This document shows, piece after piece, positions 36,766 through 59,462 of a DNA stretch of 64,000 nt. The stretch's first letter is position 1. Each line of letters starts with the position of its first letter. Location: the NCBI GenBank assembly GCA_004431415.1, contig QPMI01000208.1, forward strand, positions 62,001 through 126,000, in the 5' to 3' direction. Source of the stretch: Cyanophora paradoxa CCMP329. Its lineage: Eukaryota; Plantae; Glaucophyta. The notes under the pieces are model-generated. The model was not told the DNA's origin. It saw only the letters and a program-made list of their open reading frames with translations, and did no database searches. The position numbers and the translations under genes were made by a program.

Positions 36766-36770
36766 GCGCT

Positions 36771-37769
36771 AGCGGCTCCTCGCGGTCCTCCCGGCGAGGC
36801 CGCCGCGTACCCGTCCTGATCGGAGCTAGCCAGGCTGGCCCGGCGGACCAGGCCGCACGTACACGCAGACGGTAGGGTTGCCGCAAATCGCCCCCAATTA
36901 ATTCGGAAAATCGGATTTTCGATCGCCCACGCACACTGTTCAGAACGCTCTGTCCAGAACGCTCTCAGAGTCAGTTATGTACTTAGCAACTGGCAAAGCA
37001 ATTAATTATAATTATAAGCACGCAAGATTTACAGAGTCGAGTCCGACCCGCGGGGGCACGTGAAAGCTACGTGCGAATTTCGCAACTTCTCCCGTCTAGC
37101 TCCTCGCCACCGAAAATGTCACCTGGCCATCGGCAGCCCTGTGGACCGCGCGCGCCTATATATCCCGCGAATACCGCAAGAAAGGGCTCTCCCGCGATGC
37201 ATCGCACCCCCTGAATGCGAGGCTTGCACATGCTCAAATCACGAATTTTAGCTCCGAGCTCGCACCCCTCATGCATGAAGGTGCACGTGACGCCCCCACG
37301 TCGGCGTCTACAGCGCAATAAACCCAAATTAAACGTTACCGTAACGGCCTCTTTGTTCGCTCAGGCTGCGCTTTCGTGCTAGCTGTAGGCACAGATGGTG
37401 GACCGATTCCAGCCCGGCCCCTCTATGCATATGGATCATCGGATGCCGTCTGCATCAATATCTCAGAGTCTGATCATGGTCATGACTCTGATCATGAGGA
37501 ACTTCGGAAGACGGCGAGAACGGCCCCAACAACGACAGCGCCGCACGCCTTGCAAGGGGCAGATCTAGACATGACAGGCGACCCCCCAAAATCGTTAGCG
37601 GGACGCCTGAAACCCACGACCATGCCTTCATCCGGATCCTCGAGCTCTGCCCAACAACACGCGCCCGGCCCTCCGATCCGCGTCGAGACCCATGGCCAAA
37701 CTGAGATATTTCAACATACTGCACGAAACCATATGCATGGCCATCACGTCTCGACGTCTCAAAATATTA
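36771..37769 (+). repeat. Second copy of segments A+B without the TIR element
   Basis: Identity to 32462-32698 and 35960-36727. Confidence 0.95.
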
Positions 37770-38720
37770 ATCGCAGTCGACGCCGCAGCCACTGCAGCTG
37801 GCGACCCGGCTTACAAGCTGCCCCCGGCCCTGGCCTGCGCCAGGACGGACTGCTATATTGCGCGCTCCTGCGCCAACTGTTCAACGGTTCCCGGCCTTCG
37901 CACTGGCTGACGATGCGAACTGGGGCTGGTCAGAGCGACAACGCCACTGGGGCCAGCGGCCGGGACCCCTTCCCCGGCCCCCGCATAATCGCGCCGCCGC
38001 CCGCCGCGCCTCCGCCCGCGGCCGGGGCGCCGCGCCGCGCGCGCGCTCCGCTAGCGCTCTGCCGGCGAGCAGCGCGCGCCGCCCTAGGCCTCGAGCTCCC
38101 GTGTCCCCGCGCCTGGCCCCGCGCGGTACCCGGTCCTAGCTGGACATGTCGCCCTCCGCGATGTCGACGTCGACTCGCCGTACGCGTGTACATGCATTGC
38201 TTGGCTAACCGGGCGCGGCACGCGGGAGCGCGCAGCGGCCGGCTGCGCGACGCGAGGCCGGCGCCGTGCACGTGACGGGCGGGGCGATCGGGCAGCGGCC
38301 GCGGTCGGCGCGGCTCGCCAGGCGGCGCGGTCGGCGGTCGGCCGGGTGGAGGCGCCGCGGCGCGGCAGCTGCAGGCGGCGGCGCGGCTCGGCCTGCGGGA
38401 CGGGGGCGCGGCGCGCCGCGTCGCGGCGGCGCGGCTCGGCGCGCGCGCGGGCGGGGCGGGTCGGGGGCGTGGCGCGCGGCGGGGCGCAGCGGCTCGGCGG
38501 GCGGGCGGGGGCGCGGTGGGCAGCGGCGCAGCTCTCCGGGCACCGGCGCGCGGGGGGGGAGGCGCGGGCGGCGGCGCGCTGCGCGCAGGCCCAGGCCTAC
38601 GCCTAGCGAGCGAAGATCTAGATAGCCGCTGAGCATGCGCATTACTTAGTTGTTGTATTCTGTCAACGCCGGCGCCCCTACTTTAGACCCCACCTTGCAC
38701 CTCCTGAGACGAGCGGGGGC

Positions 38721-38976
38721 TGTCGGATGGGAAGAAGCCCACCCGGTACGCCCTGCGCGGTCTAGCGCAGGCGGTGGTGATAGCAGGAAGCACAAGTGGT
38801 CTATTCACAAGTGTACCCGTACAGCGACGGCGTACCCCTCAGATGGGGCCGCGCCCGGCGCTAAGTCACAACACAGAGAGCACTACAAGCTAGAAGCTTA
38901 CTAGCGCTAGACTAAGGCTAGAGGCTAACCATAGACTACCAGCTAGCCTAGTCCGAGGGCATCGCGGCATGCGACA
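38721..38976 (-). repeat. 3' LTR
   Basis: Identical to 58978-59233. Confidence 0.97.
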
Positions 38977-38988
38977 ACTCCTCACTCT
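38977..38988 (-). other. Polypurine tract
   Basis: AGAGTGAGGAGT on the minus strand abutting the 3' LTR. Confidence 0.75.
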
Positions 38989-39608
38989 GCATACGATGCG
39001 TCCGCGCATCGGACCGCGCCAAGCTCGTCAGCACGCGCAGCGGGTCTCCCAAATCGCGGCGGCGACGGAGCAGGAGCTCCACTCGAGGAAGATAGGTCAT
39101 CACCAGCAACCAGCAGCACCAGGTCGACGAAGTCGGGGTAGATAATAAGGGTAGAGGTAGCAGGATCCGATACCGGAAATGCATGTACCTAGGCAACCCC
39201 TGGCAAAGCTTGAAAAGTGCTGAAAAGCATAGACTCGAAACCCGTGGGCTGGCCCAAAACTCGCTCCGTACGGCGAGCACCGCAGGAGAGGGGCACGGAT
39301 GGGAAGTTTCACCGCCTCGGAAGAAAACGCGAGGAGGTATCCGGGCCACCCATCAGGCCCAACGAAAGAGCGGGGCACGATAGAGTGAGCCGCCGACTAC
39401 ACGCCTTTCTGGGGCCGTGCACCAACGAAGCCCCACTCTACCACTCCTCTGAGCTCTAGGGCCCGCGCTCCAGAAAAGGGAACGAAAGTCTTCATGGAGC
39501 CAGCACGCCACCGACCCACGCTTGGCCCGACAAGACAGCGCAAGTGTGATCGGCCGACGTCTCCAAGAGAGGACAAGGCTGAGGCAAAGCTGGCAAAGAA
39601 ATCTGCCC

Positions 39609-42314: not shown

Positions 42315-43552
42315 GCGGAAGATGCCGAGGGGAACGTCGGGGTCCTCGGGCTCGGCGCCCTCGGCATGCTGGGAACGCCAAAGCCCTCGGCTCCCTTGTA
42401 GGCCGCGGGCGTCGAGGAAGAGCCATCGGCGCCGCCGGGCTGCCAGACGGGGTGGTCCTTAGGGAGGCGCGAACACGCGTCAGGGCCGCCGTTCTGTTTG
42501 CCCGGGCGATAGACAATATCAAAATCGTAAGCCTGCAGGAGCAGGGACCAGCGGCCTAGCCGACCCGTCGTCGGATCGAGGCTTTTCAACCACTGGAGGG
42601 CGTGGTGGTCGGTTCGGACCAGGAACTGGGGCCCGCCTAGCAGATAGTGGCGCCAATACTTGATGGCCCACACGACGGCGAGACACTCGAGTTCCGTAGC
42701 CGAGTAGTTCATCTCAGCCGGCAGCAAAGTGCGGCTGATAAAGGCAAGGGGCGCTCGACGCCGTCCTTGTCCGTCTGGCTCAGAATCGCGCCGATTGCGT
42801 ATGTACTGGCGTCCGTCTGGAGTATGAAGGGCTTCGAGAAATCCGGGAACCGCAATATGATATCGCGACCCAGCAGTTCTTTCAGCTCCTTAAAGGCACG
42901 GTCGGCGGCACCGCCCTCAGGCCAACTCCAGACGGCGTCCTTCAATAGAAGGCGCTGCATAGCGTAAACCACTTTGGAGAAGTTCTCAACAAAGCGGCGG
43001 TAGTAACCGGCGAGGCCCAGGAACGAGCGGAGCTCGTCCGCGTTCTTAGGCGTCTGCCAGTCCGAGATCACCTTGGTCTTCGCGGGGTCCTGCCGGATCC
43101 CCTCGGCGGAGATGCGGTGGCCTAGAAGGTCGATTTCTGGCACGCAGAAGCGGCACTTCGACGGCTTCAGGCGCAAGTTCGCCTTGGAGATCGCTTCGAA
43201 AAGCGCCTTCAAGTCCAAGAGGTGCTGATCGATCGACGGCGAGAACACCGTGATGTCATCGATGTAGGCCACGACACAGGTCGTCAGGAGAGGGCCCAAG
43301 ATCGCGGTGATCGCACGAGAGAAGGCCGCAGGGCCATTGGTCACCCCGAACGGGGTCACGCGCCACTGGAAGTGACCCCAGGGGACGACGAATGCAGTGT
43401 ACGCGCGCGAGCCGGGGTGGAGAGGGAGCTGCCAGAAGCCGGCGGTAGCATCCGCCGTCGAGAAGACCATCGAGCCGCGCAGGCGCTCGAGCTGGTCGTC
43501 GATGCGGGGCAGCGGGAATACGTCGCGCTCCGTGATCTGATTAAGCCTTCTC
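42315..43552 (-). CDS. pol: pol: reverse transcriptase (N-terminally deleted) plus RNase H, frameshifted
   Basis: FPLPRIDD, GFWQ, PFGVTNGPAAF, YIDD, FLGLAGYYRRFV, LQTDAS, NYSATELECLAVVWA, TDHHAL. Confidence 0.93.
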
Positions 43553-45130
43553 GTCTCCGAGCCTTGCGGACTGTCATCACGTCATGTAACGAGCGGACGG
43601 CGCGTAGGATGTCGGCTTCCCCAGCCTCTGTGAGCTTGGGGAAGGTCCCGCGCAGCGTTGCGCCTGCGGGCACGGCCACGGCTTCGACCGCGTCGGCAAA
43701 TTCGGTTGCCGGCGGGCCCGAGATCGGTACTGTTGTCGGAGATGCGCTTCTCTGGGACGCGCCGTCGAGGTCAGAGGCGTCGTCGAAACTAATAAGGCTC
43801 ATAGCGTCCGTCTCTTGCCACGGCCGGTCATAGACATCGAACGGCATTGCGCCGAATGCGACAACGAGATCATCGGCGTCGTAGAGCGGCGCGCGGGTCG
43901 GGCCCGGAGGGCCAAGCACAGGTAGAGCAGCGGTGGCTGCCCGTGCTTCTTCAGCTGCAGTTACTACGGCGCGCAGCGAGGTGATGATCTTTTCGACATC
44001 TTTGGCAGGCTCGTAAGCCGCCCCAAGCATGCGCGCTTTTCTATTGAAGTGGCGAAGTCCCGTGCGGCGTTTAGCCGGCACAATTCGCATGCGGCGAATT
44101 AAAAGATCAGTCAGATCTTTGGGACTGGTGGGAATTTGCTCAGGCTCATACAAGAAATCACCAGGGGGCAAAGCCACTGCCTCGGCGACTGCTACTACTG
44201 AACCTAAGGGGAGGGTAACTGGCTGGCGTCTGGGGTTACACAGCCGCACGTGGAACATTTTGTTCCCCGGGTTGTTGTGCAGCTGGAAGGGGCAGAGTAC
44301 GCCCAAGGCTTGAGGCGACTCCGGCGAGGGCTCGACGTAGAGGTGCGGCAACTCACGCGTTGCCGGGCCCTGCCCATTGAGCGTACATGGGACGAGGGCC
44401 TCTCCGACGGGGAGCTTTACAGGTCCGAGCACGCGGACCAGGATCCCAAGCTGGTCCGGAGCCGAAAAGGGACGACAACCTCACGGTAGTGGCTGTCGCG
44501 GGCGCGGAGGCACCAGCCCGACAGCGTAGTATCGATCTGGCCGTGGATGGCCTGGATGGCATCCAGGCCGAGAAGAATGTCGGGCTCGGGGCCCATGACG
44601 CCGCGCGGGACGACGAAAACACGACGGCAGAAACGGAGAGTCCCGAGGATGAAAACTACGTCGGCGCGACGGCAACGGATTTTGTCGCGGTCCATGAAGC
44701 CACGAACTACGGTGTGGCCCTCGACGTAATTGACTTCGTCGGGCGGCAGGCGATCGAGGACTTCCTGCGGGACGACGGTGCCTTGGGCGCCCGTGTCGAT
44801 GACGATGCGGACAGGCCGCTCGGCGCCCGACCGTCCGTTGGGGAGTCGCATCGCGATGCAGCCTGGGATTTGCAGTGTTTTTGGCCGGAAGAACTCGAGC
44901 GTTTTGTCGCGAGGCCAGCCGGTGCGGGCCTTGCGGACGTAGTACTCGGGTTCCGGCGGGGCGGGCGGTCCCGCAAGGTCGGGGCTGCCCGCTTCAGAGC
45001 TCGGCGAGGACGGGCGCGAGTTGCGAGCGGCTGCGCGGCGCGCGATCCGCTGCTGCTCCGCCTGCTCCTCCGCGGGGGACGGGCGCGAGCGTTTACGCCG
45101 GCTCGGGCCGTGACGGTTTGCATAAATCAA
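43553..45130 (-). CDS. pol: pol: retropepsin aspartic protease plus dUTPase-like linker, frameshifted at ~44470
   Basis: IVIDTGAQ and ILLGLD. The following segment VRLCNPRRQPVTLPLGSVVA resembles degenerate dUTPase-like folds. Confidence 0.82.
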
Positions 45131-45444
45131 CTCGTCGGCGGGCGGGTCGTAGCCCGCGCGCGTGCCCAGCGGAGTGTCCTCTGCCGGCCGAGGGACGTTT
45201 CAAACTGAACGGAGTTTGCGTCACGCCCCGCCCATTGTTAACTTCTTCCGCCAATGAAATTAGCCCAGCGCAAACTTGAGCTCGAACTTGGCCTCGTACA
45301 CAGTGGCGTACACACGCGGCCACAACGGTCACAGTAACGGTCAGCAGGCCGGCTTGCTAGTCAGCTTCCCTCGGCTAGGCCGGACTAGCTAGCTTCCCGC
45401 CATCGCGCACGCCCGAGCGCGAGCATTCCTGCACGCCGCCGTGC

Positions 45445-47072
45445 ATGAAGCAGTCAAAGCGAAAGGAACCCAGCCTCTGGGATGACGGCTTCGACGAGGC
45501 CCGACGTCGGCACCGCTGGCACGGCAAGCGACCCGACAGCAGCAGCTCGTGGGCCGGCAAGGGCAACATGAAGCGTGTCAACAAGATCACTCAGCAGGCG
45601 CGCAAGGCGAAGGAGCCCAAGCTCCCTGACCTCGACATCCTCAAGGGCGAGCACCCCGCGGCAACGGTCCGCTGCCTGGACACCAGCGGCCGCGCCTACC
45701 ACGTTCGCCTTGGCGACTTCGTCATCTGTTCAGTTAGCTCAGACACCCAGCTGTGTCCAGAACTCAGCGTCGTTCGCCCGAAGCCCTTCCATTTCCCGCG
45801 CCCAGGTGAAACGATTTTGGCGCGAGTCGAGGGCGAGTTCCCAACACAGACGAAGGCGAAGCGCGGCGACTTCAACTACTCCGTCAACGGCGTCATCCTT
45901 CGGCGCTTCGTGCGCCCGGAGGACTCCGATGTGAAGGACTGCGGGCTCGGCAGCGTGATCATCAAGGCAGACGGGGAGCAGGCAGCCGTGGCCATCGCAA
46001 ACCACCTCATCTACTACTCGAACGTGACGGTCCGCCCGCCGCGCCCGCGCCCCGTTCCAGCGTCCGATGCCCGTGCGCGCAGGTTCACGCACCCGCGAAG
46101 GTGGTGGCCGCGGACGAGTACAAAGCCCTCAACCACGCCGATCCCCACATCTACGTCTGTAAGCAAATCATGACGTTCCCGGGCGACGGCTCCTTCCAGT
46201 TCGACGTCGCCCTCGCCTTCAACGCGAGGCTCAAGCGAGTGGCGAAGAAGAAGATGGCGTGCTTCCTCCGGCCGCTGTCGAGGCCGGAGGAGCGCGTGGA
46301 GGCGATTGGCTACCTTCAGGACGCCGCCGCGAACGCCCTCAAGCGCCGGAAGACCGGGACGCAGCTTGTCAACGTCAAGATCCCGGTGGCCGGGCCGGCA
46401 ATGTTGGTCTGCGGCTCTTATGACTCGTTCGAAGTTCTTTTTCCTATCCTCTAACGGTGCGCATCGCAGGAGAACATCGTGGCGCAGGTCGCGCACGTCG
46501 CCACGCCCATCGACCCGAAGACGGGCCAGCCGATCCCGGTTGACAAGCTGCCGGCGGCGAATCGCTTCGTTATCGAGCTTCCGGACCGCGAGACCGCTGC
46601 TGGTGGAAGCCGCTTCCTTTTTCCCGCTCGCTGTTCTTTTTCCGACCTCTTTGCAGCTGTTCTCGGTCCCTCCGGCGTGGCGCAAGCGTCCAAGCGCGTC
46701 TGCAAGCGGGACGCGGACGGGAAGGCGATCCGGAAGCACAGCGAGCACAGCGATCCGGACGCGGACGGGAAGGCGATCCGGAAGGCGAGACGGGGACGGG
46801 AACGGCGCGCGCACACGCTGCTGAAGGTACTCGATCGCTTCAAGGAGCTTGGACGCCATGCGAACCGCATCGGAAACCCGCTTGCAGCCGGTGAGCCTCC
46901 GATAGAGTGCGGCGTCCTCCTCCTCGATGCGAAAGCGGTGCCGCCCGGGCTTGTCCCAGGGGGTGAATCGATCTTCCTCCTCGCCCGTCATCTCGACATC
47001 GCACTTGCGCCGCTTGCACTGCTGCTTGGTGGACGTGGCGGGCTTCTTCGGGGCTGGCTTCTTCGCGGCTGA
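45445..47072 (+). CDS. Antisense intron-containing BAH-domain protein inside the retrotransposon; 3' end uncertain
   Basis: YHVRLGDFVIC..ILARVE..VILRRFVRPEDS..LIYYSN[intron 46030-46082]VHAPAKVVAADEY..IYVC follows the BAH pattern. A second GT-AG intron at 46407-46469 has a CTAAC branch site and keeps the frame. Confidence 0.68.
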
Positions 47073-47780
47073 GCTGGCAGGCGACGGCGCGACAGAGGGA
47101 TCGTCCATATACCGCTCCATGGCAACGAAGGGATCCTCATATTGCTCGCTCGGTGCCGCCGCGGGCGAAGGCTGGGAGGTCGCCGCCGCTGCCCGCTTGC
47201 GACTCACGCGCTTAGGCATGTCCACGGGGGTCGCTGGCGAGGCCGCTGCCGCCGGCGGCTGCGTGCGTGGAGGCGTGGCCGGCTGATCATGCGAAGGCTG
47301 CGATTGCGAGGGCGCAGCTACTACCCGCTTGCGACGCGGGCGATCAGGCGTGTACACGGGGGTCGCTGATGAGGCAGCTGCGACAGGCGGCGTACACGGC
47401 TGTACAGGCGTACCCCCCCCCAAAGGCGTCCCTGGCGTCTCACAGCAGCCGCTGCCGGGGCTCTGCTCGAGCTCTGAGCGTACTGGCGAGACTTGTGGGG
47501 AGTCGCTCCCGCCCGCCGGCTCCGCCGCGGGAGGCGCCAGCGCGACCGCGGCCGTCGCATGCGCAGCTGGCGCTGCATGCGCAGGCTGAACGACTTGCTC
47601 GCTCAAAGCTGCGTCGCCAAAGTCGTCTGGATTCACGTCCTCGCCGAGGTCGTCCTGGCTGCCGCAGGTGCTGCCGCCAATCTGGCCGTGCCGCGGCCTG
47701 CCATCGCTGGCGCCGCCCAGCCACGCTCTAATGGAACCGAACGCTGAGCCGACCTTGGCAGACAGCACAGAGAGCGGCAT
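46451..47780 (-). CDS. Accessory protein, disordered with HLH-like C-terminal segment; 3' end uncertain
   Basis: ATG at 47780, Pro/Ala/Ser-rich region, NLS-like KRRK, then RIEEEDAALYRRLTGCKRV..ASKLLEAIEYLQQ. Possible intron from ~46814. Confidence 0.5.
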
Positions 47781-48089
47781 CTCGATCGCCGAACGCTAAG
47801 CTATAAGCGCTTTTGCTTTTCCCGCGCAAGTCCGTGGCTGGCCGCAATCTAGCTGCAGCTGGCCGTGGCTTGGAAGGGGGGGGAGATGGCTTGGGGGGGA
47901 TATAGAATTTGGTCTAGCCAGCTCGAACTCGAACTCAGCCGGCTGATAGCCGCCGTGACACGGCCGTGTTCAAAATTCAAATTCCATCCATTGTTAAAGC
48001 TCGCGAACTAGCGGGATGTCCAAAAGGTCGCGCCGTTTTCGGCCCGTCGAGGTCCGTCCGGGGCCGTCTGCGACATGCGAAACAGCTCC

Positions 48090-51000
48090 TTACGGGAGGG
48101 CAGCGGTGGGGCGGTTCTTGGCGCTCAGCGCGTGACCGACAGGGACCATCGCCTCCTCGTCCGAGCTGATGCCCTCGGGGTAGATGATGGCCTCAGCCTC
48201 AAGGGCCGTTTTCGGGGCGAAGGCCGCGGTCGGAGTCGACCCTGAGAACCACTCACGGGCGAGGCGTGGCGGGGCTTTGTAGCCCTGCTTGTGCAGCGTG
48301 AGCCCGTAGCGGTTCATGATCGACTGGTGCGCAGCGCGGAGCGCCGGCGACAGCTCGGACGGCTTGACCGTCAGCATGAGGGCCGGGTTCGCCAGCCAGT
48401 TGAAAACTGTGACCGTGGAGCGGGGCCCCAGCTGGTTGAGAAGGCGGCGCGCCCAGGCCGGAGCCTGCTCGCGCTGAGCTGCCGGGGCGGGTTGCTCCTG
48501 TGCCGGCGAGCTAGCGGGCGGGGGCGAGGGCGCCGGGTCCTGGCGCGGCGGGGGGACCGCTGGGGCGGCCCTCTCGACGAGCAGGACGGGCTCTCGGACG
48601 CTGACGCAGGGCGCAGCACTGCGCTCTTCGACTGCGGTGGCGCCCAGGGCTGCGCCGCTCGGGGAAACGTGCAGGTGCGCGGGCAGGTCGCCGTGAACTC
48701 GCGCCGCGCGAATGGGCTCGGCAGTCTCAGCTGCTTTGCGCACCATCCGAACGACTCGCGATCCGGTCGCCTCTGCCTCGCGGGCATGGATTTCGCGAAG
48801 ATCCCGTTGCCGCTCGCGTTCCAGCTGGGTGCGGAACTCACGAGTGACGTCGAGAGTGCGCCGGAGCGACTCGAGCTCGTTGCGAGGGCCCGTCGGAAGG
48901 GTCGACAGGAGGGACGTAACCGTGCCCTCGGGGAGAGTGATCTCCATGGAAATGTTTTGTTTCAGAGCCCGGCTCAGGAGCTCGAGCATTTGACAGCATC
49001 TTCTGTGGGCCTCTTTCCAATTGTCCTGCGGCGCCGCATTGCCGCCCTTCATTCGGCGGTACACGTCGTGCGCGGTGGTCACCCGGCGGTCAACCGTGTA
49101 CACCCAGTTCCGAAGATTCTGGAGTCCGGTGTCTCGCAGGCCCGGGTCACGGCAAGCCGCGCACTCTTGTGCAAAGGCCAGAAGGCCGAGAGTGGCGATG
49201 TTGGCCGCAGGGTCAAAAGAGGAAATCGACGCAGAAGGCCTGGCTTTCTTTTTCTCAGCGGTCTGCGACGTCGGCTGACCGGCCTGGGAGGAGGAGGCGC
49301 TACCCTCCGCAGCGGCAGCGTGCGGCCCCGTCGCACCCTGCTCAGACTGCCCCCCAGGCCCGCTCAGAAAGGGCTGCTTCCCCTTCTCGGCGGCCCGCAA
49401 GCGCTCAAGCTCGGCCCGTTCCGTGGCCGCTAGCGGCTCGGAAGAGCTCTGCGCCGCGGGCGTGGCGGGAGCCGAGCCCCAGCCCCACGCGGGCGCCATC
49501 GCGTACGTGCCGGCCCCGTGGCCGCCGTAGGAAGAGCGCGCTGTGGCCTGGTCCAGCTGGCGCAGCAGCGAGGCACGCAACGTGTCTGTCGTGTACTGCG
49601 CGCGCTTCTTTGCGTCCAGCTGGTGCGTAGCCTCGGCGTACGTCTTTTCCCACAGCGCGGTGTAGGCCTCGCGGGCCGTCGGGTTCTGGTAAACGCGAGA
49701 CGCGTCGCGAACGTGCTCGTCGTACCCGGCCTCTTCGGCGCCCTTGGGCGGCGTCGGTGGGCGGCCCTTTCCCTTCCTGGGGCTGCGGAGACTGTCCCGG
49801 CGGCGGTCGCGCGACCGGGAACGCGATCGTGAGCGCGTTCGGCTGCGCCGGTCCCGCGAGCTGCGGCGCGGGCTGCGGCTCGAACGGTCCCGGGAGGAGC
49901 TGCGCCGGGAGCGCGAGGGGCTCCTGCGGTCGTGGCGGCTTCGCGAGCTGCTCCGGCGGCGCTCAGGGGAGCGGTGCCGGCTGCGACGGTCGTCGCGGTC
50001 GCGGGACCGGCTGCGCCGGGAGTACTTCGATTGGGCCCGGGAGGAGCGGGCCGGCGAGCGCGAGCGGCGCTTTGAGGGTGCCCGTGAGGACTCCCTGTCG
50101 CGTTCACGGGTTGCCGGCGGGGCCGTAGTCTGGCTCGTGCTACTGCGCGGCGAGCGTTGGCCTTCTGTGACCCGAGGCCGATCAGGCGTGCGCCGGGGCG
50201 GCGGCGGGGCCATCGGCGTCTGCTCGCGTGGGGGAGGGGACCGCGGCGGGTGCTGCGGAACAGGCGGTGTGGTCGGGGGAGGCTGCCCGGACTGCCACTG
50301 CCCGGACTGCCACTGCTGTCCTGGCGGTCCGGGGGGCCAGGGCTGGGGGCCGGGCTGCCAGGGCTGACCCTGGAACCCCTGGTTGGGGCCGCCACCCTGG
50401 TAACCTCCGGGACCCTGCCAGCCGCCACGGCCGCGCCAGCCGCCGCCACGCCAGCCGCCACCGCCGCGCCAGCCGCCACGGCCGCGCGAGTCGCCTCCGC
50501 CTCGGCCGCCACGGCCACCATGGCCACCGTGGGGCGCAGCGTGGGGCGGGGTCTGTCCGGCCTGCTGAGGGGCGCTCGAGCTCGAGGCCGCAGCCGGGGC
50601 GACGGCCTGTGCGGCCGCGGGGGCGGGGCCCTCGTTTTCGAGCGGCGTGACGCCCGTCTTTGCATCATCGACTAGTGCCGGCGGGGGAACGAAGTGTGTC
50701 CCCGCCCACGAGGTGCGCACGTCGGCGTCGTAGATCGGCTGGTACGGCGTGCGGACCAGGTGGGCCTCGTCAGGGCTTTGCGCCTTGCCGCGCAGCTTCA
50801 TGACCGGAGCGGCGTTCTTCTGCGTGGTGACGGCGTCCCACATGAGCGCTGGTGAGAGAGCGTCGTTCTCCCATTCCGGGGACTTCAGGGCCTCCCAGTC
50901 GATCTTCGAGTCGCCGACGTGCCCAATCACATGCACGTACTCGGCGTACAGAGTGCGCAGGATTCCCTCGAAGTTCTCTCTCACGCCGAAGGCTGTGCCC

Positions 51001-54000
51001 GTGAACACGAAGCCGTGGGGGAAATTCTCGGGGTGGCTCCAGAGCTCATTGGCGGCTCGAGCGGCCTCGGTGTCGGGGAGCACAGTCGGCTTCCAGGTGC
51101 CGGCGACCTTGGTCACTGGCCAGTGATCCTCCTCGCCAGCCATAGGCGGGGAGGCAAGCTCGAGGCGCTGGTACCCGAGTCCCTGCGGCGTCTGAGCGAG
51201 GTAGTCGCGCAGGGCGCTCGCTACGACGCCCTCGTGCGTCGAGCGGTCCGTCGCCCGCTTCAGGTGGTACTCCAGAACGTCACAGAGCGTCTCGCTCTGT
51301 ACCGCGTTGAGCGGCGCCCGGCCGTCCTTCCGGCGCGGCAGCAGCGGGATCCCGGAGTGCTGGTGGCCCTGGAGAACGGCCAGGAGGATGCGCGAGCAGA
51401 TGGCCAGGCGGCCCTCGTAGTCGGGTACTACTTTACCCTGCTCGTACTTCCAAGCAAGCGTCGGGCGCCCATCGGCGTACGTCGGGCGCGCATCGCGGGT
51501 TCCCTTTTCCTTTTCGGGTTTGGACGGCGGCGGTGTGAGGAAGGCCCTGTGCAGAAATCGCACGAGGCCGTCGGGCACGACGCAGCGGTATGAGTTCAGA
51601 ATGGCGTTTGTGTCCTCGTCGAGCGAGGCCACATTCGCGATGTATCGCTCAACAACCTCGTCGCTGTCCTCGATGACCATCGGCGTGACAGAGAAGTCAT
51701 CGGACCAAGGCTGGCTGCCGAGCGCCTTGCCTGGCGCGTAAGCCTGGAAGCACCGGTGCTGCCACGCGACGGTGAAGCCGGCGAGGGTGCACGCGAGGTC
51801 TTCCTCCACCGGGATCGGGGCCCATGCGAGGGCGGACGAGGTGGCCCCCGCAGACAGCTCGTAGCCAAAGGCGTTGACGAGGGGAGGATGGGCCTTGCTG
51901 CGCTTCGGCGCGCGAGCTAGCTTCCCCATCGTGCCACCCAGCCAGAGCGCTTGGTTGGTTGCCTGGTGCCGAGCATTTGTCTTTGCGTCGGCATCGTGCA
52001 GCTTCCCAAGCACTGCAGTGCCCGCGACGATGCGCGGCGCGTAGGTGCGGACTACTTCGAAGCGCTCACTGTCGCTGCTCTGGGCAGTGCGCTTGTCGCA
52101 GAGCGGGCGGTGGAGATCGAGGATAACGGTCTCGCGCGCGTAACGCGTGCCGAACGGCGACGCGGCAGACTCGACTCGCGTGTCCGCGAGGTTGTTGTTG
52201 AGGACCGCCGTATACGGGGAGGGGTTCATGTCGTCCTGGATATACGGCGGGCTTTCATCGCCGGGGTCATCCACGAAGAAAACGGTGTACAACACGCGCG
52301 CCGTCTGGGCGAGCGCGGAGCTCATGGCGGCGTGCGCCGTTCCCTCATGCGAAATGTCCCACGGGCCTAGGTACGAGGGCACCATGGACTGCGCGGAGCG
52401 CGTGCCGACCGCCAGGTACTGCGCAACGTCCGGGTCGACGCCGCACATGACGTGCGCGAACGCCAGACCCTGGATATCGAACAGCCGGCTCTCCCGCAGG
52501 GGCAGCATCGGCGGGCCTACGGCCGCGAAAAAGTTCGTGATGCCGCGGGCAGCGCTCCCGACTCGCTTCAGGATAGTGGACGCAAACTCGCCCAGGTGCG
52601 TATCGAGGCCATGGATCGCGTCCCCGTAGCTCTCGTCCGTCTCAGTCTCCGAGCGCCACTGCAGCGGGTAGCTGATCGCAGGCAGGGCCGCCCAGTCGAG
52701 GACCGAGCTATCGAAGCAGCCGAGGGGGCGGAAAAACGAGCTCGTCTCAGACAGATACTGCTCGAGCAACGTGTGGTCGTTTAGATACGTCTTTTCCGTG
52801 AGAGAGAACACCGGGCGAGGCTTCCACTTCGGGTGAGGTGCGAAAGCGGCGCCGGCGTGGAGCCGAGCGACCTCGCCCTCCGCGCCCTCGTCGGGGCGGA
52901 GGTCCTCGCCCTCGGGAAGATCGACGAGGAAGGGGTGCAAGGGCGGGTCGGGCTCGTCGGTGTCAGCACCAGCGAGGCGGGCCTCGTCCACCGCGTACGT
53001 CTTCGGGCGACGCAGCATTTTCAAGATGGAGTCGCGCATCGCGGCCCACTCCGCCGTCGCAGCGGTCTCGAAGATGCTGGCCCGCGACGCAAGGCGCAGG
53101 TACTTACGAGCCCACCTCAGCCCCTTCGGCAGCTCCAGGGCTGCTCGGGCCGCCGACGGGGCTTCCGCGGCCGGGGCCTCGTCGAGGAGCAGCGCGTGGG
53201 CCTGCAGAAGGTAGCGCGCGACGCTCGACGGGATGACGACCGCATTCGGGTTGAAGCGATTCTCGTGCACCCAAGCCGGCGTGCGCGGCTGCGGGATGCG
53301 CCAGCGAGCCGTGAGATACCACTCGACATCGTCCTGCGCCCAGTCATGGAGGCTGGTCGGCAGGCCATCGGTCTGAGGAGTGATTTCAGAAACCAGCCCC
53401 AGGCCGAGCATGAGCAGCTCAAGAGCCGCAGCGTTCTCGCGGGCGATCCGAATGGAGCTCGGCGCGCGGCGGGCCGGGAGGCCGGCCAGCGGTACGACGG
53501 CGGGGAGCGGGTTGTCCGCGCGCTCGTACGGCTGCGAGCCGCACTCCTCGATGATGAAATCTTTCAAGTGGGGGACGCGGAGCGTCTCGAGCGTCCCCTT
53601 GACAGCGGACGTTTCAATACCCCAGCGTGCTGCCAGAATTTTGCGCTGGGCAGGCGGCCAATTCTCAAGGCTCTTGCCGCGGTTGTGCGGCGAGACCCTG
53701 GGCACTACGAGGGCTCCGCCAATGACCCCAAGCGCTTCGTACAGGGCGTACTGGGCGGGGTCGTCGGCGTCGGGAGTCCCGGCAGGCTCAGGCTGGGACG
53801 CGGGCTGCGTGGGCTCGCTGGGGCCCTCGCCGCCACCTCCCCCCTCATCGCGCTTCTCCGACATGGGCACATCACCCTCCTTGTCCTTCTGGGGCTCCTG
53901 GCCCTGGGCGCCCTTGCGGCCCCGCCCCTGGCCCCGCCGGCCGCCTCCGCGGCCCTGACCCTTCGCGCCCCCAGCCGCTGCCTGCCGCGGCTTCCCGCCA

Positions 54001-54959
54001 GCTAGTGGGCCAGGCTCGTGCGCAGGGTTGAGGGCGGGCGTCGGCGTCCGCGGAGGCGAGAGGCGGCCGCCGGGCAGGATCGCCGGCTCGGGCGCGGCTG
54101 TCTGCGGCACGAGAGCGGCCGCAGCCTGCAGCGTGAGCCCGATGGCCTTCACGGTGGCCTGGCCGTCGAGAGCGCGGGCGTGCGCCTCGCGATCGAGCTT
54201 CGAGGCGACCGGGGTCGTCGTCGGGCAGCTCGGATCCAAGCGCCACTTCTCTGCGAACGCGATGAGCTGGTCGACCTCCTCGTCGCTCAGACCGCCGCTC
54301 TTCCGCTTGAGGCGGCGGTACAGAAGGATGAGGTGTGCGCGCGAGTGGGGCGGAGTGCCCTCAATGTACTTGATGAGGCGGGCGCTGCCGGCACTCCCCG
54401 TCACAGTCTTAATGTGGACGAGGCTCTTCAGGGTTTCCAAGGGCTCGGTGGGCCCCAGGGGGCTCAAGATCGAGACCTCCTCCGGGATGATAGTGGGCTG
54501 ACGCCCAGCATCCTTGTCGGCATGCAAGGTCAGCTGCGTGCCCCGCGTCGCCGGCCGCACGAGCCCCAGGTACCAGCCCGTCGGGACTGGCGCCTTGGAG
54601 TCGCCAGGGGCCGGCGGGCGGTGACCCAGCAGCGCGTAGAGCCAGGCGGTGCACAGCGGAAGGTCGCGGAGCGCGAGGATGCGCTCGGCGGCGAGGCCCT
54701 CGCCGACCGACATCCGCTCGACGACGCAGGCGTCGCTGAGCCGGCTGTAGTCCGGGGCGCGCCCCTTGCGGTACGCCTCATGGCGCTCGTGGGCGGCCCT
54801 GGCCAGCCAGCCCTCAGTGTCCTTCACCGAGTGGAGCACCTTCGCTGACGGAACTGGCAGCTCGAGCGAGAGCGCCGCGGTCGTGAGCAGGTGCACCGCA
54901 GTCGTGAAGTCAAAGTCCGAGGGGCAGGCACGGCCTCGCTCGCGAGGAGAGCGGCACAC
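48090..54959 (-). CDS. 2289 aa uncharacterised ORF with RGG- and RS-rich regions; probable C-terminal part of the giant Gag ORF
   Basis: Uninterrupted 6.9 kb frame with protein-like composition. No domain recognised. Confidence 0.85.
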   Translation of the reverse strand: MCRSPRERGRACPSDFDFTTAVHLLTTAALSLELPVPSAKVLHSVKDTEGWLARAAHERHEAYRKGRAPDYSRLSDACVVERMSVGEGLAAERILALRDLPLCTAWLYALLGHRPPAPGDSKAPVPTGWYLGLVRPATRGTQLTLHADKDAGRQPTIIPEEVSILSPLGPTEPLETLKSLVHIKTVTGSAGSARLIKYIEGTPPHSRAHLILLYRRLKRKSGGLSDEEVDQLIAFAEKWRLDPSCPTTTPVASKLDREAHARALDGQATVKAIGLTLQAAAALVPQTAAPEPAILPGGRLSPPRTPTPALNPAHEPGPLAGGKPRQAAAGGAKGQGRGGGRRGQGRGRKGAQGQEPQKDKEGDVPMSEKRDEGGGGGEGPSEPTQPASQPEPAGTPDADDPAQYALYEALGVIGGALVVPRVSPHNRGKSLENWPPAQRKILAARWGIETSAVKGTLETLRVPHLKDFIIEECGSQPYERADNPLPAVVPLAGLPARRAPSSIRIARENAAALELLMLGLGLVSEITPQTDGLPTSLHDWAQDDVEWYLTARWRIPQPRTPAWVHENRFNPNAVVIPSSVARYLLQAHALLLDEAPAAEAPSAARAALELPKGLRWARKYLRLASRASIFETAATAEWAAMRDSILKMLRRPKTYAVDEARLAGADTDEPDPPLHPFLVDLPEGEDLRPDEGAEGEVARLHAGAAFAPHPKWKPRPVFSLTEKTYLNDHTLLEQYLSETSSFFRPLGCFDSSVLDWAALPAISYPLQWRSETETDESYGDAIHGLDTHLGEFASTILKRVGSAARGITNFFAAVGPPMLPLRESRLFDIQGLAFAHVMCGVDPDVAQYLAVGTRSAQSMVPSYLGPWDISHEGTAHAAMSSALAQTARVLYTVFFVDDPGDESPPYIQDDMNPSPYTAVLNNNLADTRVESAASPFGTRYARETVILDLHRPLCDKRTAQSSDSERFEVVRTYAPRIVAGTAVLGKLHDADAKTNARHQATNQALWLGGTMGKLARAPKRSKAHPPLVNAFGYELSAGATSSALAWAPIPVEEDLACTLAGFTVAWQHRCFQAYAPGKALGSQPWSDDFSVTPMVIEDSDEVVERYIANVASLDEDTNAILNSYRCVVPDGLVRFLHRAFLTPPPSKPEKEKGTRDARPTYADGRPTLAWKYEQGKVVPDYEGRLAICSRILLAVLQGHQHSGIPLLPRRKDGRAPLNAVQSETLCDVLEYHLKRATDRSTHEGVVASALRDYLAQTPQGLGYQRLELASPPMAGEEDHWPVTKVAGTWKPTVLPDTEAARAANELWSHPENFPHGFVFTGTAFGVRENFEGILRTLYAEYVHVIGHVGDSKIDWEALKSPEWENDALSPALMWDAVTTQKNAAPVMKLRGKAQSPDEAHLVRTPYQPIYDADVRTSWAGTHFVPPPALVDDAKTGVTPLENEGPAPAAAQAVAPAAASSSSAPQQAGQTPPHAAPHGGHGGRGGRGGGDSRGRGGWRGGGGWRGGGWRGRGGWQGPGGYQGGGPNQGFQGQPWQPGPQPWPPGPPGQQWQSGQWQSGQPPPTTPPVPQHPPRSPPPREQTPMAPPPPRRTPDRPRVTEGQRSPRSSTSQTTAPPATRERDRESSRAPSKRRSRSPARSSRAQSKYSRRSRSRDRDDRRSRHRSPERRRSSSRSRHDRRSPSRSRRSSSRDRSSRSPRRSSRDRRSRTRSRSRSRSRDRRRDSLRSPRKGKGRPPTPPKGAEEAGYDEHVRDASRVYQNPTAREAYTALWEKTYAEATHQLDAKKRAQYTTDTLRASLLRQLDQATARSSYGGHGAGTYAMAPAWGWGSAPATPAAQSSSEPLAATERAELERLRAAEKGKQPFLSGPGGQSEQGATGPHAAAAEGSASSSQAGQPTSQTAEKKKARPSASISSFDPAANIATLGLLAFAQECAACRDPGLRDTGLQNLRNWVYTVDRRVTTAHDVYRRMKGGNAAPQDNWKEAHRRCCQMLELLSRALKQNISMEITLPEGTVTSLLSTLPTGPRNELESLRRTLDVTREFRTQLERERQRDLREIHAREAEATGSRVVRMVRKAAETAEPIRAARVHGDLPAHLHVSPSGAALGATAVEERSAAPCVSVREPVLLVERAAPAVPPPRQDPAPSPPPASSPAQEQPAPAAQREQAPAWARRLLNQLGPRSTVTVFNWLANPALMLTVKPSELSPALRAAHQSIMNRYGLTLHKQGYKAPPRLAREWFSGSTPTAAFAPKTALEAEAIIYPEGISSDEEAMVPVGHALSAKNRPTAALP

Positions 54960-56060
54960 TTATGCAGGTCGATGCGACCGGTGTGGCCCCCGAAGCTTCC
55001 CGCAGTTTTCCAGCGAGCCCAGTGCTCGAGGAGGACGAGCGCGAGCCCGTAGGCATCCGTGTGCTCGTCGACCATGAGCGGGGCCGCGAAGTCGAAGTAC
55101 CGCTGGAGAATTTTCTCGGCGGCCTTAGACGACCCCGGGGCACCGTAGTCGAGGCGGTGCAGGTAATAACCGGCGACGCAGGCCGCAGCTGCCAGCCGCA
55201 GGCGGGTCTGGTCGGAAACCAACTGGCCGCGACCCAGGCGCGTCGATCCCATCAGCTGCATCTCGTGCGGCGCGAGTGCGAGGGCGATCGGGGACTGCGA
55301 GCCGACGCTCTCGTGGCCCCGGTAACCCTCGAGCCAGCCCGCGATCGCTATCTCGCCCGGCCGAAGCTTCTGGAGGTCCGGTTCCACCTCCGGCTTGCCG
55401 AAGGCGGTCAGGCCCTTCGTGGGCCACGGCCTCCCCTTGGCAACGCGCTGGGCGTGAAGGCCGACCTGCCGTACCAGGTGCATCGTGCTGAGGTAGCGCG
55501 TCGGCCAGGCGTGCGCCAGCAGGTCGCGCGAGGCGCTGCTGTGCCCCAGCATGTGCAAGAAAGCCGTCGGCAGGGTCGGGGAATCGGTATACACACTCTC
55601 ATCCGCAAACGGCTGCGTGAGCGCCGAGAGCAGGAAGGAGAAAGCCTGGCGAGTGCGGCCAGGGCAGCGGAACGCGGTAGCGTACCACTGCACCTCCGGC
55701 TGCTCGACCAGGCCCTCGAGGCAGTACGTCACACAGTGGCTGAGGCGAGGGTTCGGGTACACGAAACCCTCGCGCCCTAGTTCCACGGGAGCGGCACCCT
55801 TCAGCTTGTGCCCCTGAACATCCCAGAGGATGGCCGGGCCCAGCTCGGCCTCGCGGCCGGGCTCCTCCGTGAGATTTAGGGCGCCGAAGTGTGCTACAGT
55901 GAACCCAGCGCGCGCAAGGTAAGCGCGGTTGGTGCGGATGCACTCCTTAGAGGCGGCCTCGCGATCCTCCTCGGCCGCCGAAGCGCCGTCGTCCGTGACC
56001 GAGAGGCTCGCAACGGTCTCAGCGCCCGACGAGTACTCCAGGCAAGGGCCGACCCGGCGG
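54824..56060 (-). CDS. Middle part of the giant Gag ORF, bounded by 1 bp frameshifts
   Basis: The frame of ORF 54824-55786 stays open upstream to at least ~56060. Both junctions fall at C-runs. Confidence 0.65.
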
Positions 56061-58425
56061 CGGGGTCGACGTCGCCCTTGACGCAGGTGGCCGCCACGGC
56101 GGACTCCAGGCTGCCAATTGCCAGTGCGTCAGCATCCCCGCCCGAGCTCGCCGGCTGCAGAGCAGCGACATCAGAACCCTTCGCTTCTGCGTCAGCGCCC
56201 TCAACCTCCGTTGGGTCCGGGGCGGCCGCAGACTCGAGGGCAAAGGTGCCCAGGTCGGCGGCGTTCATGATGTCGGCAAATGAGCTCAGGCCGGCGGAGA
56301 GCCCAGGGCCGATGCCGGCCGCGATCGGCTCGGTCGCGGTCTTTTCCGTCTCAGCGAGGCCCGACTCCGGGCGGGCCCGCATGTCGATCACGGTTTCCTC
56401 CTCCGGGCAAAGGTCCGGCCGCGCAGCCAAGATAATCTGCACGAGGCCGATCGCGAACGCCGTTGCGGCTGCGGCGCAGGTGCTCAGGCTCTCATCCTTG
56501 TGCAGGGCTGCGGCATGCTCCGTAGTGACGGCGCTGAAGCGCTCGAAGGCGCGCGCAAGCTCGAGACCGGTGCTCGCGCTGGTGCGGTCGATTTTGACGC
56601 GGAATACGCGGCGCTCTTTGCCGAGCTCCGCGGGCGCAGGAGCCGCAGTCGGGCCGGAGCCGGGGCTCGCGGCCGGGGTGGACGGGCTGCCCAGAAGGCT
56701 CGGGCCTCCGCGGACGGCCTCCGAGAGGATGGCGCGCGCGATCGCGAAGGTCGCGGCCTCGCTCGCGGGGCTCGTCGCCGGCGCAGAGGCGAGGGCTTCC
56801 TTGTGCTCAGCGAACGCGCGGCGGACGGCGATCCCAACCTCACTCGCGATCTTGGAGTCGATCGCGGGGCAGTTAGCCTGGCGGTGCCCCGGCTTTCCGC
56901 ACCCGTAGCAGACAGGGGGCCCGTTGCCGGACGGCGGGGCGGGGCTGAAGTTCCCACCCTGAGGGCGGCGCTTGGCCTCGCCTCCGAACCCGCCGGCGCG
57001 GCGCTTGTTGGGGTTGATCACCGCCCAATCGGGCAGCGGCGTCGGGCTCACGTCGCACTCGAACTTCCAGTGGCGCTTGCCGCAGTGGCACGGGTTGCGC
57101 GGCTGAGCCGGCAGACCGCGCTCGCGCAGGAATTCGGTGATCTTCTGGCGGTATACCGGGTCGTCGGGCCGCGGCGGCGGCGCGGAGGAGGACGGGTAGA
57201 TCGCGCGGATCACCACGTCAACTTCCTCATCGTCGCCCGCGAATGCGTACCGGCAGAACATCACGAGTTCCTCCGTCTGCGCGTCGTCCGCGACGCCGTC
57301 ATCGTACCCGCCGTCGTACGCCTCATGCGTGTGCGCTCGCATCACGCGCGCGTCCTTCGATGCGCGGCTACCGGGCGGGACGACGGGGACGGCCGGCGGC
57401 GCAGCGTGCATGGCCGCGCGCTGCAGGGACTGCATAGCGCTCGGGGCCGGGGCCGGCGCCGCGCTCGGCAGCGCGCTGCGTTTGACGACGTACGCTGAGC
57501 CCGGCACGTTCGAGATATCCGTGTCCCATGCGCCGAGCTCGCGGCAGCGCTTGCGTACGTAGTTGACGAGGGCAACCTCGTCTTTCAGCAAGCCCTCGCG
57601 CACGCGCTGTGCAAGTTCGGCTTGCACTACTGTCAAGACCTCGAGGTTCTTGAGCATGCGGCGCCGGTCTTTCTCCGACAGATCCTTCACGTCATCGAAT
57701 TCGCGGTACGCGCCGCGATTCCGGTGTGCGATCATGTCGCCGAGCTGGCGGACCAGCGCCGAGAGCGGGTTCTCGAGGAGCTGGCGCGCGTCCGGGTGCA
57801 TGCACAAGCGGCAGGTGCGGCGGACGCACGCCTCGGGATTCTCGCCTAGATAGGGCAGGCGCAGAACTTCCTTCAGGTCGTCCGGGTTGCGCTCGCCCGA
57901 GTCGGACTCCAGGCGGGCGCGGATCGCAGCGAAGGTGGTCTCGCGCTTAGACGCCACGATGGCCTCTTCGATTTCTGCGATCTGCTCGCCGAGCCCTTCG
58001 AGCAGCATGAGCTCGTGCTCATTAGCAGCGCCCAGCCGTTCCTTTTCGGCCTTTTCGCTCTTCAGCTTCGCCAGCTCGCTCTTGCGCGCGCGCTGGCCGG
58101 CGTGGAAGAGCTCGATCTCGCTCCGCACGCTGTGCGCGGGGTCGAGAGTCTGTACGAGCGCGAGGCCAGTGTTCTGCTGCTGGCTATCGCCTGCATCTTC
58201 AGCCAGATTCAGGATGTTCCGGCTAAGTGCGGCGGCAGCCTCGAAGGCCGCGAGGTGATCCTCGACGGTCTGGCGGTCGGCGCCTGGCTGCAGCGGCGGA
58301 ATCCGACGCAGCATCTCTAGCGCATTCGTCGGAATGCCGCTTAGAGTGCTCGGCTCTGCCGTGAAAGGAGCCAAGTTCGCCATCCGGATGTGGTACTCCG
58401 CGGAAGCTCCGGTGCCGGAGGACAT
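55894..58425 (-). CDS. gag: Gag with zinc knuckle(s)
   Basis: CYGCGKPGHRQANC (CX2CX4HX4C) plus variant CHCGKRHWKFEC, with a coiled-coil N-terminus. First ORF after the 5' LTR. Confidence 0.85.
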   Translation of the reverse strand: MSSGTGASAEYHIRMANLAPFTAEPSTLSGIPTNALEMLRRIPPLQPGADRQTVEDHLAAFEAAAALSRNILNLAEDAGDSQQQNTGLALVQTLDPAHSVRSEIELFHAGQRARKSELAKLKSEKAEKERLGAANEHELMLLEGLGEQIAEIEEAIVASKRETTFAAIRARLESDSGERNPDDLKEVLRLPYLGENPEACVRRTCRLCMHPDARQLLENPLSALVRQLGDMIAHRNRGAYREFDDVKDLSEKDRRRMLKNLEVLTVVQAELAQRVREGLLKDEVALVNYVRKRCRELGAWDTDISNVPGSAYVVKRSALPSAAPAPAPSAMQSLQRAAMHAAPPAVPVVPPGSRASKDARVMRAHTHEAYDGGYDDGVADDAQTEELVMFCRYAFAGDDEEVDVVIRAIYPSSSAPPPRPDDPVYRQKITEFLRERGLPAQPRNPCHCGKRHWKFECDVSPTPLPDWAVINPNKRRAGGFGGEAKRRPQGGNFSPAPPSGNGPPVCYGCGKPGHRQANCPAIDSKIASEVGIAVRRAFAEHKEALASAPATSPASEAATFAIARAILSEAVRGGPSLLGSPSTPAASPGSGPTAAPAPAELGKERRVFRVKIDRTSASTGLELARAFERFSAVTTEHAAALHKDESLSTCAAAATAFAIGLVQIILAARPDLCPEEETVIDMRARPESGLAETEKTATEPIAAGIGPGLSAGLSSFADIMNAADLGTFALESAAAPDPTEVEGADAEAKGSDVAALQPASSGGDADALAIGSLESAVAATCVKGDVDPAAGSALAWSTRRALRPLRASRSRTTALRRPRRIARPPLRSASAPTALTLRALGSL

Positions 58426-58977
58426 TCTTTTCACGAAAAGCTCGCGGCGTAAAGCCAAGCTTATCGATCAGAATGTCCGCGATCCGGCTCCTCTGAGGTC
58501 CGCGGTCGCGCGACGAGGCTTCTCGAAGCCAAGTCGCCGATGTCCTCTGATCAAGCACGCCCTTTCAAGAAGACAGGCTCACTACGCGGTAGTAGAGCAA
58601 CTGCTTCGGGCGGCTAGCGATGCAACGGCGATCCGAGCAGTCTGCCTCGGTCCCGGTTCGCTTTTCGATTCTCTCCGTCGCTCGGTGCCGCGGGCAGCCG
58701 AGGTGAGCAAGCTCACGTCGCACGAAACCGGAGCGATCTGCCCCCGGCTCGTGTTTGCGCTCTACTTGCGAGAGCAGCACGCCCCAGTTCGTCAACCTGC
58801 TCGCTCAGCCTTTGCGGGCACGGGCGGGGAGCGTCCGCACGCTCCTCGACCTCTTTCGAGGTTCTCCCGTGCGCCGGCTGAGCTGCGGGTGCTGGATTGG
58901 GCTGGTTGCTGAGGATGGTCGCTGAAGATCGCTGGTTCGTGCTCCGTAGGCACGTGGCGCCTGTCGGCAGTGGCGCC

Positions 58978-59233
58978 TGTCGGATGGGAAGAAGCCCACC
59001 CGGTACGCCCTGCGCGGTCTAGCGCAGGCGGTGGTGATAGCAGGAAGCACAAGTGGTCTATTCACAAGTGTACCCGTACAGCGACGGCGTACCCCTCAGA
59101 TGGGGCCGCGCCCGGCGCTAAGTCACAACACAGAGAGCACTACAAGCTAGAAGCTTACTAGCGCTAGACTAAGGCTAGAGGCTAACCATAGACTACCAGC
59201 TAGCCTAGTCCGAGGGCATCGCGGCATGCGACA
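58978..59233 (-). repeat. 5' LTR
   Basis: Identical to 38721-38976. Confidence 0.97.
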
Positions 59234-59462
59234 GGGGCGGGGGCGAGTCGAAGACCTAGTTGGAAACCGTTGAACGGGGTAGGGCCCCCGTTTTCGGTAA
59301 CTTACAAAATGACGAGTCTGCTCATCTCCCGATCCAGCTCCGAGCTCTTAACCACGTGTTAGTGCATGCATGAGAGCCCGGAATTCGTTGTCAGAACCCG
59401 AAACTTTGAAAAGAGCGGAATGCTGCGCGGAAAACCGGACCCTTTCCTGGACTATCCCTTGC

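Follow-up and report, generated by a model that had tools for sequence, protein, structure and literature searches.

A likely Gag-X-PR frame of 3,702 codons in a Ty3/gypsy-type retrotransposon of Cyanophora paradoxa

We analysed a stretch of 64,000 nucleotides (nt) of genomic DNA (contig QPMI01000208.1, positions 62,001 to 126,000 of the forward strand), which is called the window throughout. The window carries a Ty3/gypsy-type long terminal repeat (LTR) retrotransposon of 20,513 bp at 38721-59233 on the minus strand. Judged by the relatives of the element, its host would be the glaucophyte Cyanophora paradoxa. The element likely encodes one continuous frame, Gag-X-PR, in which Gag is connected to the protease (PR) through X, a region of about 3,000 amino acids (aa) that in sequence comparisons is found only in Cyanophora paradoxa. 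In the window copy this frame is interrupted by a nested repeat and by what are likely assembly errors.

Joining of three open reading frames

The region has a G+C content of about 69% and contains three open reading frames (ORFs), taken from the ORF list. A preliminary description, made from the letters alone, had proposed that one added base at each of two junctions fuses them into a single frame of about 3,400 aa and 10.3 kb.

55894-58458, minus strand: Gag-side ORF with a CCHC zinc knuckle
54824-56128, minus strand: middle ORF of 434 aa, stop to stop
48090-54959, minus strand: ORF of 2289 aa
56053-56055, minus strand: junction 1, a GGG run one base shorter than in contigs and siblings
54921-54924, minus strand: junction 2, a CCCC run one base shorter than in contigs and siblings

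The longest ORF in 200 shuffles of 48090-58425 had a mean length of 325 aa and a maximum of 565 aa. The 2289 aa frame is far longer than any of these and can thus be regarded as real, even though the G+C-rich region gives long ORFs by chance. The middle frame (434 aa) taken alone lies within chance length and is backed by homology. The five other frames of 48090-58425 hold 42-67 stops each. The G+C fraction at third codon positions (GC3) was 0.80-0.88 in Gag, in the middle frame and in each block of the long frame; at second positions (GC2) the value was near 0.5.

The junctions were compared with short-read contigs over 39500-58500. Twenty public DNA runs hold 0.96 of the words of the stretch; six were used, four in each comparison. 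Four runs listed as possible RNA contain almost none of these words. In 4/4 runs the contigs carry an additional C behind 56052 and an additional G behind 54920, both present at full depth. The same contigs (4/4 runs) add a G behind 42747 and another behind 42370, again with insertion depth equal to total depth. These two sites lie in the part coding for reverse transcriptase (RT), RNase H and integrase, and they confirm the similar 1 bp losses that the preliminary description had noted elsewhere in the window. Each of the four inserted bases (56052, 54920, 42747, 42370) lengthens a homopolymer run that is already there. One of the two positions first suggested for the junctions, ~54922, was correct (CCCC, 54921-54924), whereas the other, ~56063, was not, as the GGG run at 56053-56055, to which contigs and sibling proteins point, lies about 10 nt away.

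Sibling copies gave the same result. The protein P0004 is about 99.7% identical, and its alignment moves through the three frames one after the other, changing frame at 56053-56080 and again at 54920-54923. Several residue differences place it at another locus than the window. Both P0004 and P0023 (about 96%) are seamless at the two junctions, where they read '..DPAAGVGPCLEYSS..' (in short '..DPAAGVGPC..') and '..EAVPAPSDFDFTT..' (in short '..EAVPAPSDFDF..'). From these residues exactly one extra base is needed per run, and an intron in a gene model cannot yield them. Proteins of a sister family (about 43% identity) were consistent with this: P0018 and P0024 span both junctions in one high-scoring segment pair, and P0005 spans the first only. 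Short reads and sibling copies thus agree on one extra base at each junction.

Extension of the frame into the protease

The frame had been described as ending at 48090. This end coincides with a repeat that is inserted into the element, and the joined frame, called ORF1 from here on, continues on its far side.

45192-48093, no strand assigned: nested high-copy repeat of 2,902 bp, with GGGA on both sides, holding the stop codon 48090-48092
44420-45191, minus strand: linker and aspartic protease at the end of ORF1 (aa 3445-3702), with DTG at 44797-44789 and the stop TAA at 44417-44419

Contigs from 4/4 runs join 45191 straight to 48094 at the element's own depth and skip the 2,902 bases, while the depth of the insert is about 10x that of the host element. 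Since the stop codon sits inside the nested repeat, the frame stop at 48090 is an artefact. With the insert removed and an N placed at the four 1-nt sites, the minus strand is open from 58467 to 44420, which corresponds to 3,716 codons. Counted from ATG 58425, the start used by all sibling models, the Gag-X-PR frame has 3,702 codons. The insert falls after aa 3444, and the DTG of the protease stands at aa 3577. Hence the fusion itself, which is borne out by the contigs of all four runs, by P0004 and P0023 and by the sister-family proteins, could be retained from the preliminary description, but its end and its length could not. A nested element, named there as an alternative source of the region, accounts for the frame boundary and not for X.

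The sister family follows the same path. Its member P0022 covers the end of X (block X3, see below), the protease, RT, RNase H and integrase in this order. P0018 starts at Gag and with its C-terminal part overlaps the N-terminus of P0022, so that together the two proteins cover the whole path.

The nested repeat gave no Pfam match, showed no terminal inverted repeat and had no second copy in the window. Plausible ORFs were seen on its plus strand (e.g. 45379-46173), and the opposite strand has a frame of 593 aa. At 46745/46801 the contigs of other copies diverge. Further contig joints were observed at 43904->57165, 48261->52941 and 55811->56176; their sides are 21-30 nt long.

Ends of the element and the pol region

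The following features define the element outside of Gag and X.

58978-59233, minus strand: 5' LTR, 256 bp, TG..CA, next to GGGGC 59234-59238
38721-38976, minus strand: 3' LTR, found by blastn, next to GGGGC 38716-38720
~38977-38990, adjoining the 3' LTR: purine-rich tract, a candidate polypurine tract
44417-45199, minus strand: aspartic protease (Pfam Asp_protease_2, 25.1 bits)
39612-44480, minus strand: pol, with an N-terminal part of 374 aa without family, followed by RT, RNase H and integrase
42709-43581, minus strand: RVT_1 (Pfam, E 1.3e-30)
41723-42889, minus strand: RNase H (Pfam)
within 39609-42458, minus strand: integrase (Pfam)

The two LTRs are 256 bp long, start with TG, end with CA and were identical in 257/257 positions by blastn (38720-38976 vs 58978-59233). 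A target duplication of 5 bp, GGGGC, is present on both flanks (59234-59238 and 38716-38720). LTRs that are very short and identical point to a recent insertion of an LTR retrotransposon. On the minus strand the Pfam matches begin with the protease, followed by RT, RNase H and integrase, as expected for Ty3/gypsy. No tRNA gene was found in the 64-kb window. Upstream of the LTR element, at 32462-37769, several direct repeats of 220-300 nt are 100% identical, with spacings of 1,042-1,048 and 4,309 nt; they represent a recent tandem or segmental duplication.

In the window copy, pol is disrupted by the 1-nt losses at 42747 and 42370 and by a deletion (43551-43561). At the frame change near 43555 the contig graph branches (43551/43561). 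The deletion form of the window was confirmed by a contig of 69 nt with a depth of 61-103, compared to 172-412 in the neighbouring contigs. The major form contains extra sequence. At its ends this sequence encodes '..VRKASPDAAPSPAA..' and '..DGTWRFCVDY', the latter continuing into RRLNQIT, and it fits the corresponding part in P0022. The RT N-terminus was thus lost by a real deletion in the window copy and in a minority of copies. A defective sub-family with the RT deletion may have been copied, possibly in trans. With the nested insert and the deletion of the RT N-terminus, the window copy itself is defective.

Assembly errors or decay

Based on the contigs and the siblings, the breaks at the two junctions are very probably assembly errors. 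Several points weigh against this. The contigs pool all copies of the element, lose rare variants and may derive from runs of a different strain. As the contigs are pooled and the reads are not locus-specific, the four 1-nt losses could be real in the window copy. Furthermore, the sibling proteins are gene models, some with parts spliced out, and P0004 is without the zinc knuckle. Under this alternative the family would have the fused frame, and the window copy would truly have four 1-nt deletions and be decaying rather than mis-assembled. Other damage to this copy is in line with decay, namely the nested 2.9 kb insert and the RT deletion, the latter backed by the 69-nt contig at about one quarter of the family depth.

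Nevertheless, we consider a decaying copy unlikely. Each of the four differences is a G or C run that lacks one base, the typical consensus error of long reads. The run lengths of the window occurred in no contig in 4/4 runs, whereas the minority form with the RT deletion did show, and the identical LTRs count against a decayed copy as well. A published Cyanophora assembly, which is not tied to the window here, was made from PacBio RSII data with Canu and Quiver followed by majority-rule Illumina correction; it kept the PacBio sequence wherever short reads did not map, which left uncorrected PacBio areas (PMC6704402).

Gag and the blocks of X

ORF1 upstream of the protease linker is composed of the following parts.

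56869-58425, minus strand: Gag (aa 1 to ~520), ATG 58425, with a helical N-terminal region
aa ~600-840 of ORF1: variable linker, holding one hydrophobic segment (aa 650-668)
56422-56478 (aa 650-668), minus strand: hydrophobic segment, Kyte-Doolittle 2.13, Ala-rich, kept in the sister family
54108-55906 (aa 841-1440), minus strand: X1, conserved block without family, across junction 2
53748-54107 (aa 1441-1560), minus strand: first disordered tract, rich in G, R and P, with 8 RG/GR and 1 RGG in an RG-rich patch
50640-53762 (about aa 1556-2596), minus strand: X2, largest conserved block without family (phmmer, Pfam, AlphaFold2)
49728-50687 (aa 2581-2900), minus strand: second tract, with an RGG box (6 RGG), a P/Q-rich tract and an arginine/serine (RS) domain
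48094-49727 (aa 2901-3444), minus strand: X3, last block before the protease linker, its C-terminal ~130 aa 70% identical to P0022

All sibling models begin with MSSGTGASAE. The CCHC zinc knuckle CYGCGKPGHRQANC is located at aa 506-519 (56910-56869), and a CCHC-like motif is found at aa 446. In the window the knuckle scored 18.8 bits with Pfam zf-CCHC, below the cutoff of 20.8, while the sister copies scored above it (25 and 25.5 bits). An AlphaFold2 (AF2) model of Gag aa 1-482 had a mean predicted local distance difference test score (pLDDT) of 51.7, and only aa 33-177 reached 70-88. The structural comparisons gave no confirmation of a capsid-like fold in Gag: Foldseek of this weak model against pdb gave no match at E<=0.001, and a VIA wide search returned generic helical hairpins only (Z<=8.6).

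The segment at aa 650-668 is the sole strongly hydrophobic segment of ORF1 and could be a membrane or oligomerisation helix. Within the second tract, the RS domain (aa 2761-2900, 140 aa) holds 41 RS/SR dipeptides and consists of 35% R and 27% S. A similar RGG/RS tract is carried by the sister protein P0018. Pfam scans revealed no RNA recognition motif (RRM), and the RS tract thus lacks the RRM partner seen in SR proteins.

Relatives of X were found in Cyanophora only. A phmmer search of X2 against 1.84 billion representatives gave 13 matches, and 13/13 were gene models of Cyanophora paradoxa. Word-based protein searches returned two matches for X2, two for Gag and one for X3, all with 'tig' naming. 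The matches form two groups. One, with P0004, P0023 and P0009, is the family of the window copy; the other is a sister family of about 43-50% identity, whose members P0018 (3,082 aa) and P0024 (2,717 aa) start at Gag and extend through X, P0018 into the RS tract. ORF1 of the window and P0018 share 43% identity over aa 1-2586, and the identity in X1 is 25-65% per 60-aa window. Gag, X1, X2, the RGG/RS tracts, X3 and PR stand in the same order in both families.

Protein families were searched with whole ORFs (Pfam, nothing in X at E<=0.1) and with the X1, X2 and X3 blocks (nothing at E<=10). Sequence searches against the PDB gave low-complexity matches only, i.e. cruciferin (E 0.91) and the RG tails of SmD1 (E 0.05). 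As stated in the preliminary description, the part behind the zinc knuckle therefore has no recognisable family, and the profile searches proposed there confirmed this. X1 gave no usable match in the ESM Atlas. The AF2 model of X2 had a pLDDT of 30.3, too low to be of use, and was based on an alignment of 14 rows that in effect comprises two families. Self-blastp detected no internal duplication in ORF1. An Env-like nature of X was considered and rejected because of the few Cys (27 in 2,844 aa), the single hydrophobic segment and the 2 N-glycosylation sequons.

Differences between copies were used as a measure of constraint. Among the single-base differences listed for ORF1 (n=34), 21 were synonymous, compared to 8.8 +/- 2.5 expected when the same base changes are placed at random; 0/1000 simulations reached 21. 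In X alone (48313-52926) 20/31 of the differences listed were synonymous. This synonymous excess and the 43% identity that the two families share over 2,586 residues show that X is maintained as a protein.

Alternative origins of X

RS and RGG tracts are characteristic of cellular proteins that bind RNA. This counts for a reading in which X consists of one or several captured host genes, or of an insertion of foreign DNA whose frame merely happens to be open. Captured cellular domains do occur in giant gypsy elements, Burro among them (PMC6431247). However, a donor of X was not found, as all 13 phmmer matches belong to the same two element families. Moreover, the block order from Gag to PR is kept in two families at 43% identity, and the synonymous excess lies inside X. 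A captured gene or an insertion merely staying open therefore seems quite unlikely; an ancient capture of X, followed by long co-evolution with the element, may have occurred.

In the ESM Atlas the nearest clusters of X2 by features were viral RNA-dependent RNA polymerases (RdRPs), with a score of 0.91-0.92 and with 10/10 of the best family-bearing matches in one clan. X2, the core of X with 1,040 aa, could accordingly be regarded as a very divergent RdRP of viral type. If true, a retrotransposon would carry an RNA replicase, for example to amplify its own RNA or to feed or jam small-RNA silencing. We find this very improbable. The recognition value was 1943, below the mark of 2300, with 125-140/256 shared features, and ten concordant Atlas matches also arise for one third of shuffled proteins; the scores look like those of chance matches. 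No RdRP was matched in Pfam at E<=10 or by PDB profiles. FFVDD, the sole GDD-like site, is replaced by FFHEG in the sister family, although this motif reading is weak with two families only.

A candidate -1 frameshift between protease and pol

Behind the protease the pol frame (44480-43359) is shifted by -1 relative to ORF1, with an overlap of 60 nt before the ORF1 stop. The contigs show no indel at this frame change.

44435-44471, minus strand: candidate -1 frameshift signal, C_CCT_TTT at 44471-44465, a spacer of 7 nt and a hairpin of 7-8 bp at 44457-44435

The slippery heptamer C_CCT_TTT lies in the ORF1 frame inside the overlap; a rough estimate of its occurrence by chance is about 1% per 60 nt overlap. 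The hairpin is present in the minimum free energy fold. A related, abundant family differs at 44433, 44430, 44427, 44421 and 44385. All five differences fall on third positions of the -1 frame, where they are silent, whereas each alters the residue in the ORF1 frame. Variant 44163 in the N-terminal part of pol is synonymous in the -1 frame, too. Taken together, pol is probably reached via a programmed -1 ribosomal frameshift at C_CCT_TTT, as far as this can be read from sequence features.

Some observations weigh against it. The hairpin had z = -0.19, and 74/200 shuffles fold as well. One of the seven variants in the N-terminal part of pol, 44231, is non-synonymous in the -1 frame. GC3 is only 0.65 in this part (374 aa, 43359-44480) compared to at least 0.8 elsewhere in the element, an unusually weak signal of codon position, and no Pfam match was obtained for it.

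Contigs with a depth of 1,200-2,800 and few differences cover 44329-44476 and 43103-43175. A much more abundant related family has the protease-pol junction and part of the RT in common with the element.

As the element seems to use one programmed -1 frameshift here, one might suppose that the three ORFs further up are truly separate and joined by programmed +1/-1 frameshifts at both junctions, but with one extra base at each in contigs and sibling proteins and a slippery heptamer at neither, this is hardly credible.

Discussion

The closest known case to the likely Gag-X-PR element is that of Burro / GYPSM1, giant gypsy-like LTR retrotransposons of planarians. ORF1 of Burro has 4,873-5,140 aa, starts with Gag and CCHC knuckles and contains many extra domains before the protease (PMC6431247). 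The Cyanophora element likewise has a giant ORF1 that leads from Gag and CCHC via thousands of residues to the protease (3,702 aa here), and both have internal regions of roughly 20 kb or above (PMC6431247). The extra part of Burro includes BIR, BCL2-like, MATH, ankyrin and SUMO-like domains and an in-frame Env, whereas X is without a Pfam match at E<=10 (PMC6431247). In contrast to the planarian Burro, the element described here belongs to a glaucophyte alga, has very short LTRs and has no sequence relative outside Cyanophora. The plant Ty3/gypsy elements Ogre and Retand are also large, with extra coding or long internal regions. Their extra ORFs are separate, upstream of gag or downstream of pol, while X lies in frame between Gag and protease; and the size of Ogre is largely due to its LTRs, which in Cyanophora have 256 bp (PMC6431247, PMC11963269).

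How X might work can be outlined tentatively. A Gag-X-PR polyprotein would be cut by its own protease and release X as accessory proteins. Judged by their composition, the arginine-rich RGG/RS tracts would bind the RNA of the element, and X1-X3 would serve the expression, nuclear traffic or packaging of a genomic RNA of about 20 kb. In the hepadnaviruses, which are reverse-transcribing elements too, the arginine/serine-rich tail of the core protein, on the capsid side, binds pregenomic RNA and is regulated by phosphorylation. Its likeness to the Cyanophora RS tract is one of composition only, and unlike the core tail the RS tract lies about 2,250 aa past the knuckle, between large blocks without family. 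As a working model for X we used CERV of Cer1 from C. elegans, an accessory protein without relatives that acts in nuclear export of genomic RNA (PMC10309623). CERV is small and made from a spliced mRNA, and the comparison is one of role, with no sequence similarity claimed (PMC10309623). Against this functional reading stands that an RNA-binding role is deduced from residue composition alone. By analogy, RNA handling by X is a possibility to which we give limited weight, and other roles, such as countering host silencing or the particle assembly, movement and suppression of host defence suggested in the preliminary description, may apply on an equal footing.

LTR elements make up 1.77% of the Cyanophora genome (PMC6704402). 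The element family is not described in the available text of the genome paper (PMC6704402), and our literature searches retrieved no description of a Cyanophora Gag-X-PR element. In the public Cyanophora proteins, copies of the element are annotated as many separate short 'hypothetical' host genes, which distorts the proteome. Gene models of sibling copies (P0004, P0005, P0022) also leave out parts of the element by splicing; that of P0022 passes over most of the N-terminal part of pol together with part of the RT. Homopolymer errors split the copies further and thereby inflate gene counts.

A giant layout from Gag to protease, so far described for the planarian Burro, is thus likely present in a glaucophyte alga, too. 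X constitutes a large pool of protein without known family that is kept by selection in two diverged families, and its setting, a virus-like particle for which an RNA of about 20 kb has to be expressed, trafficked and packaged, is testable.

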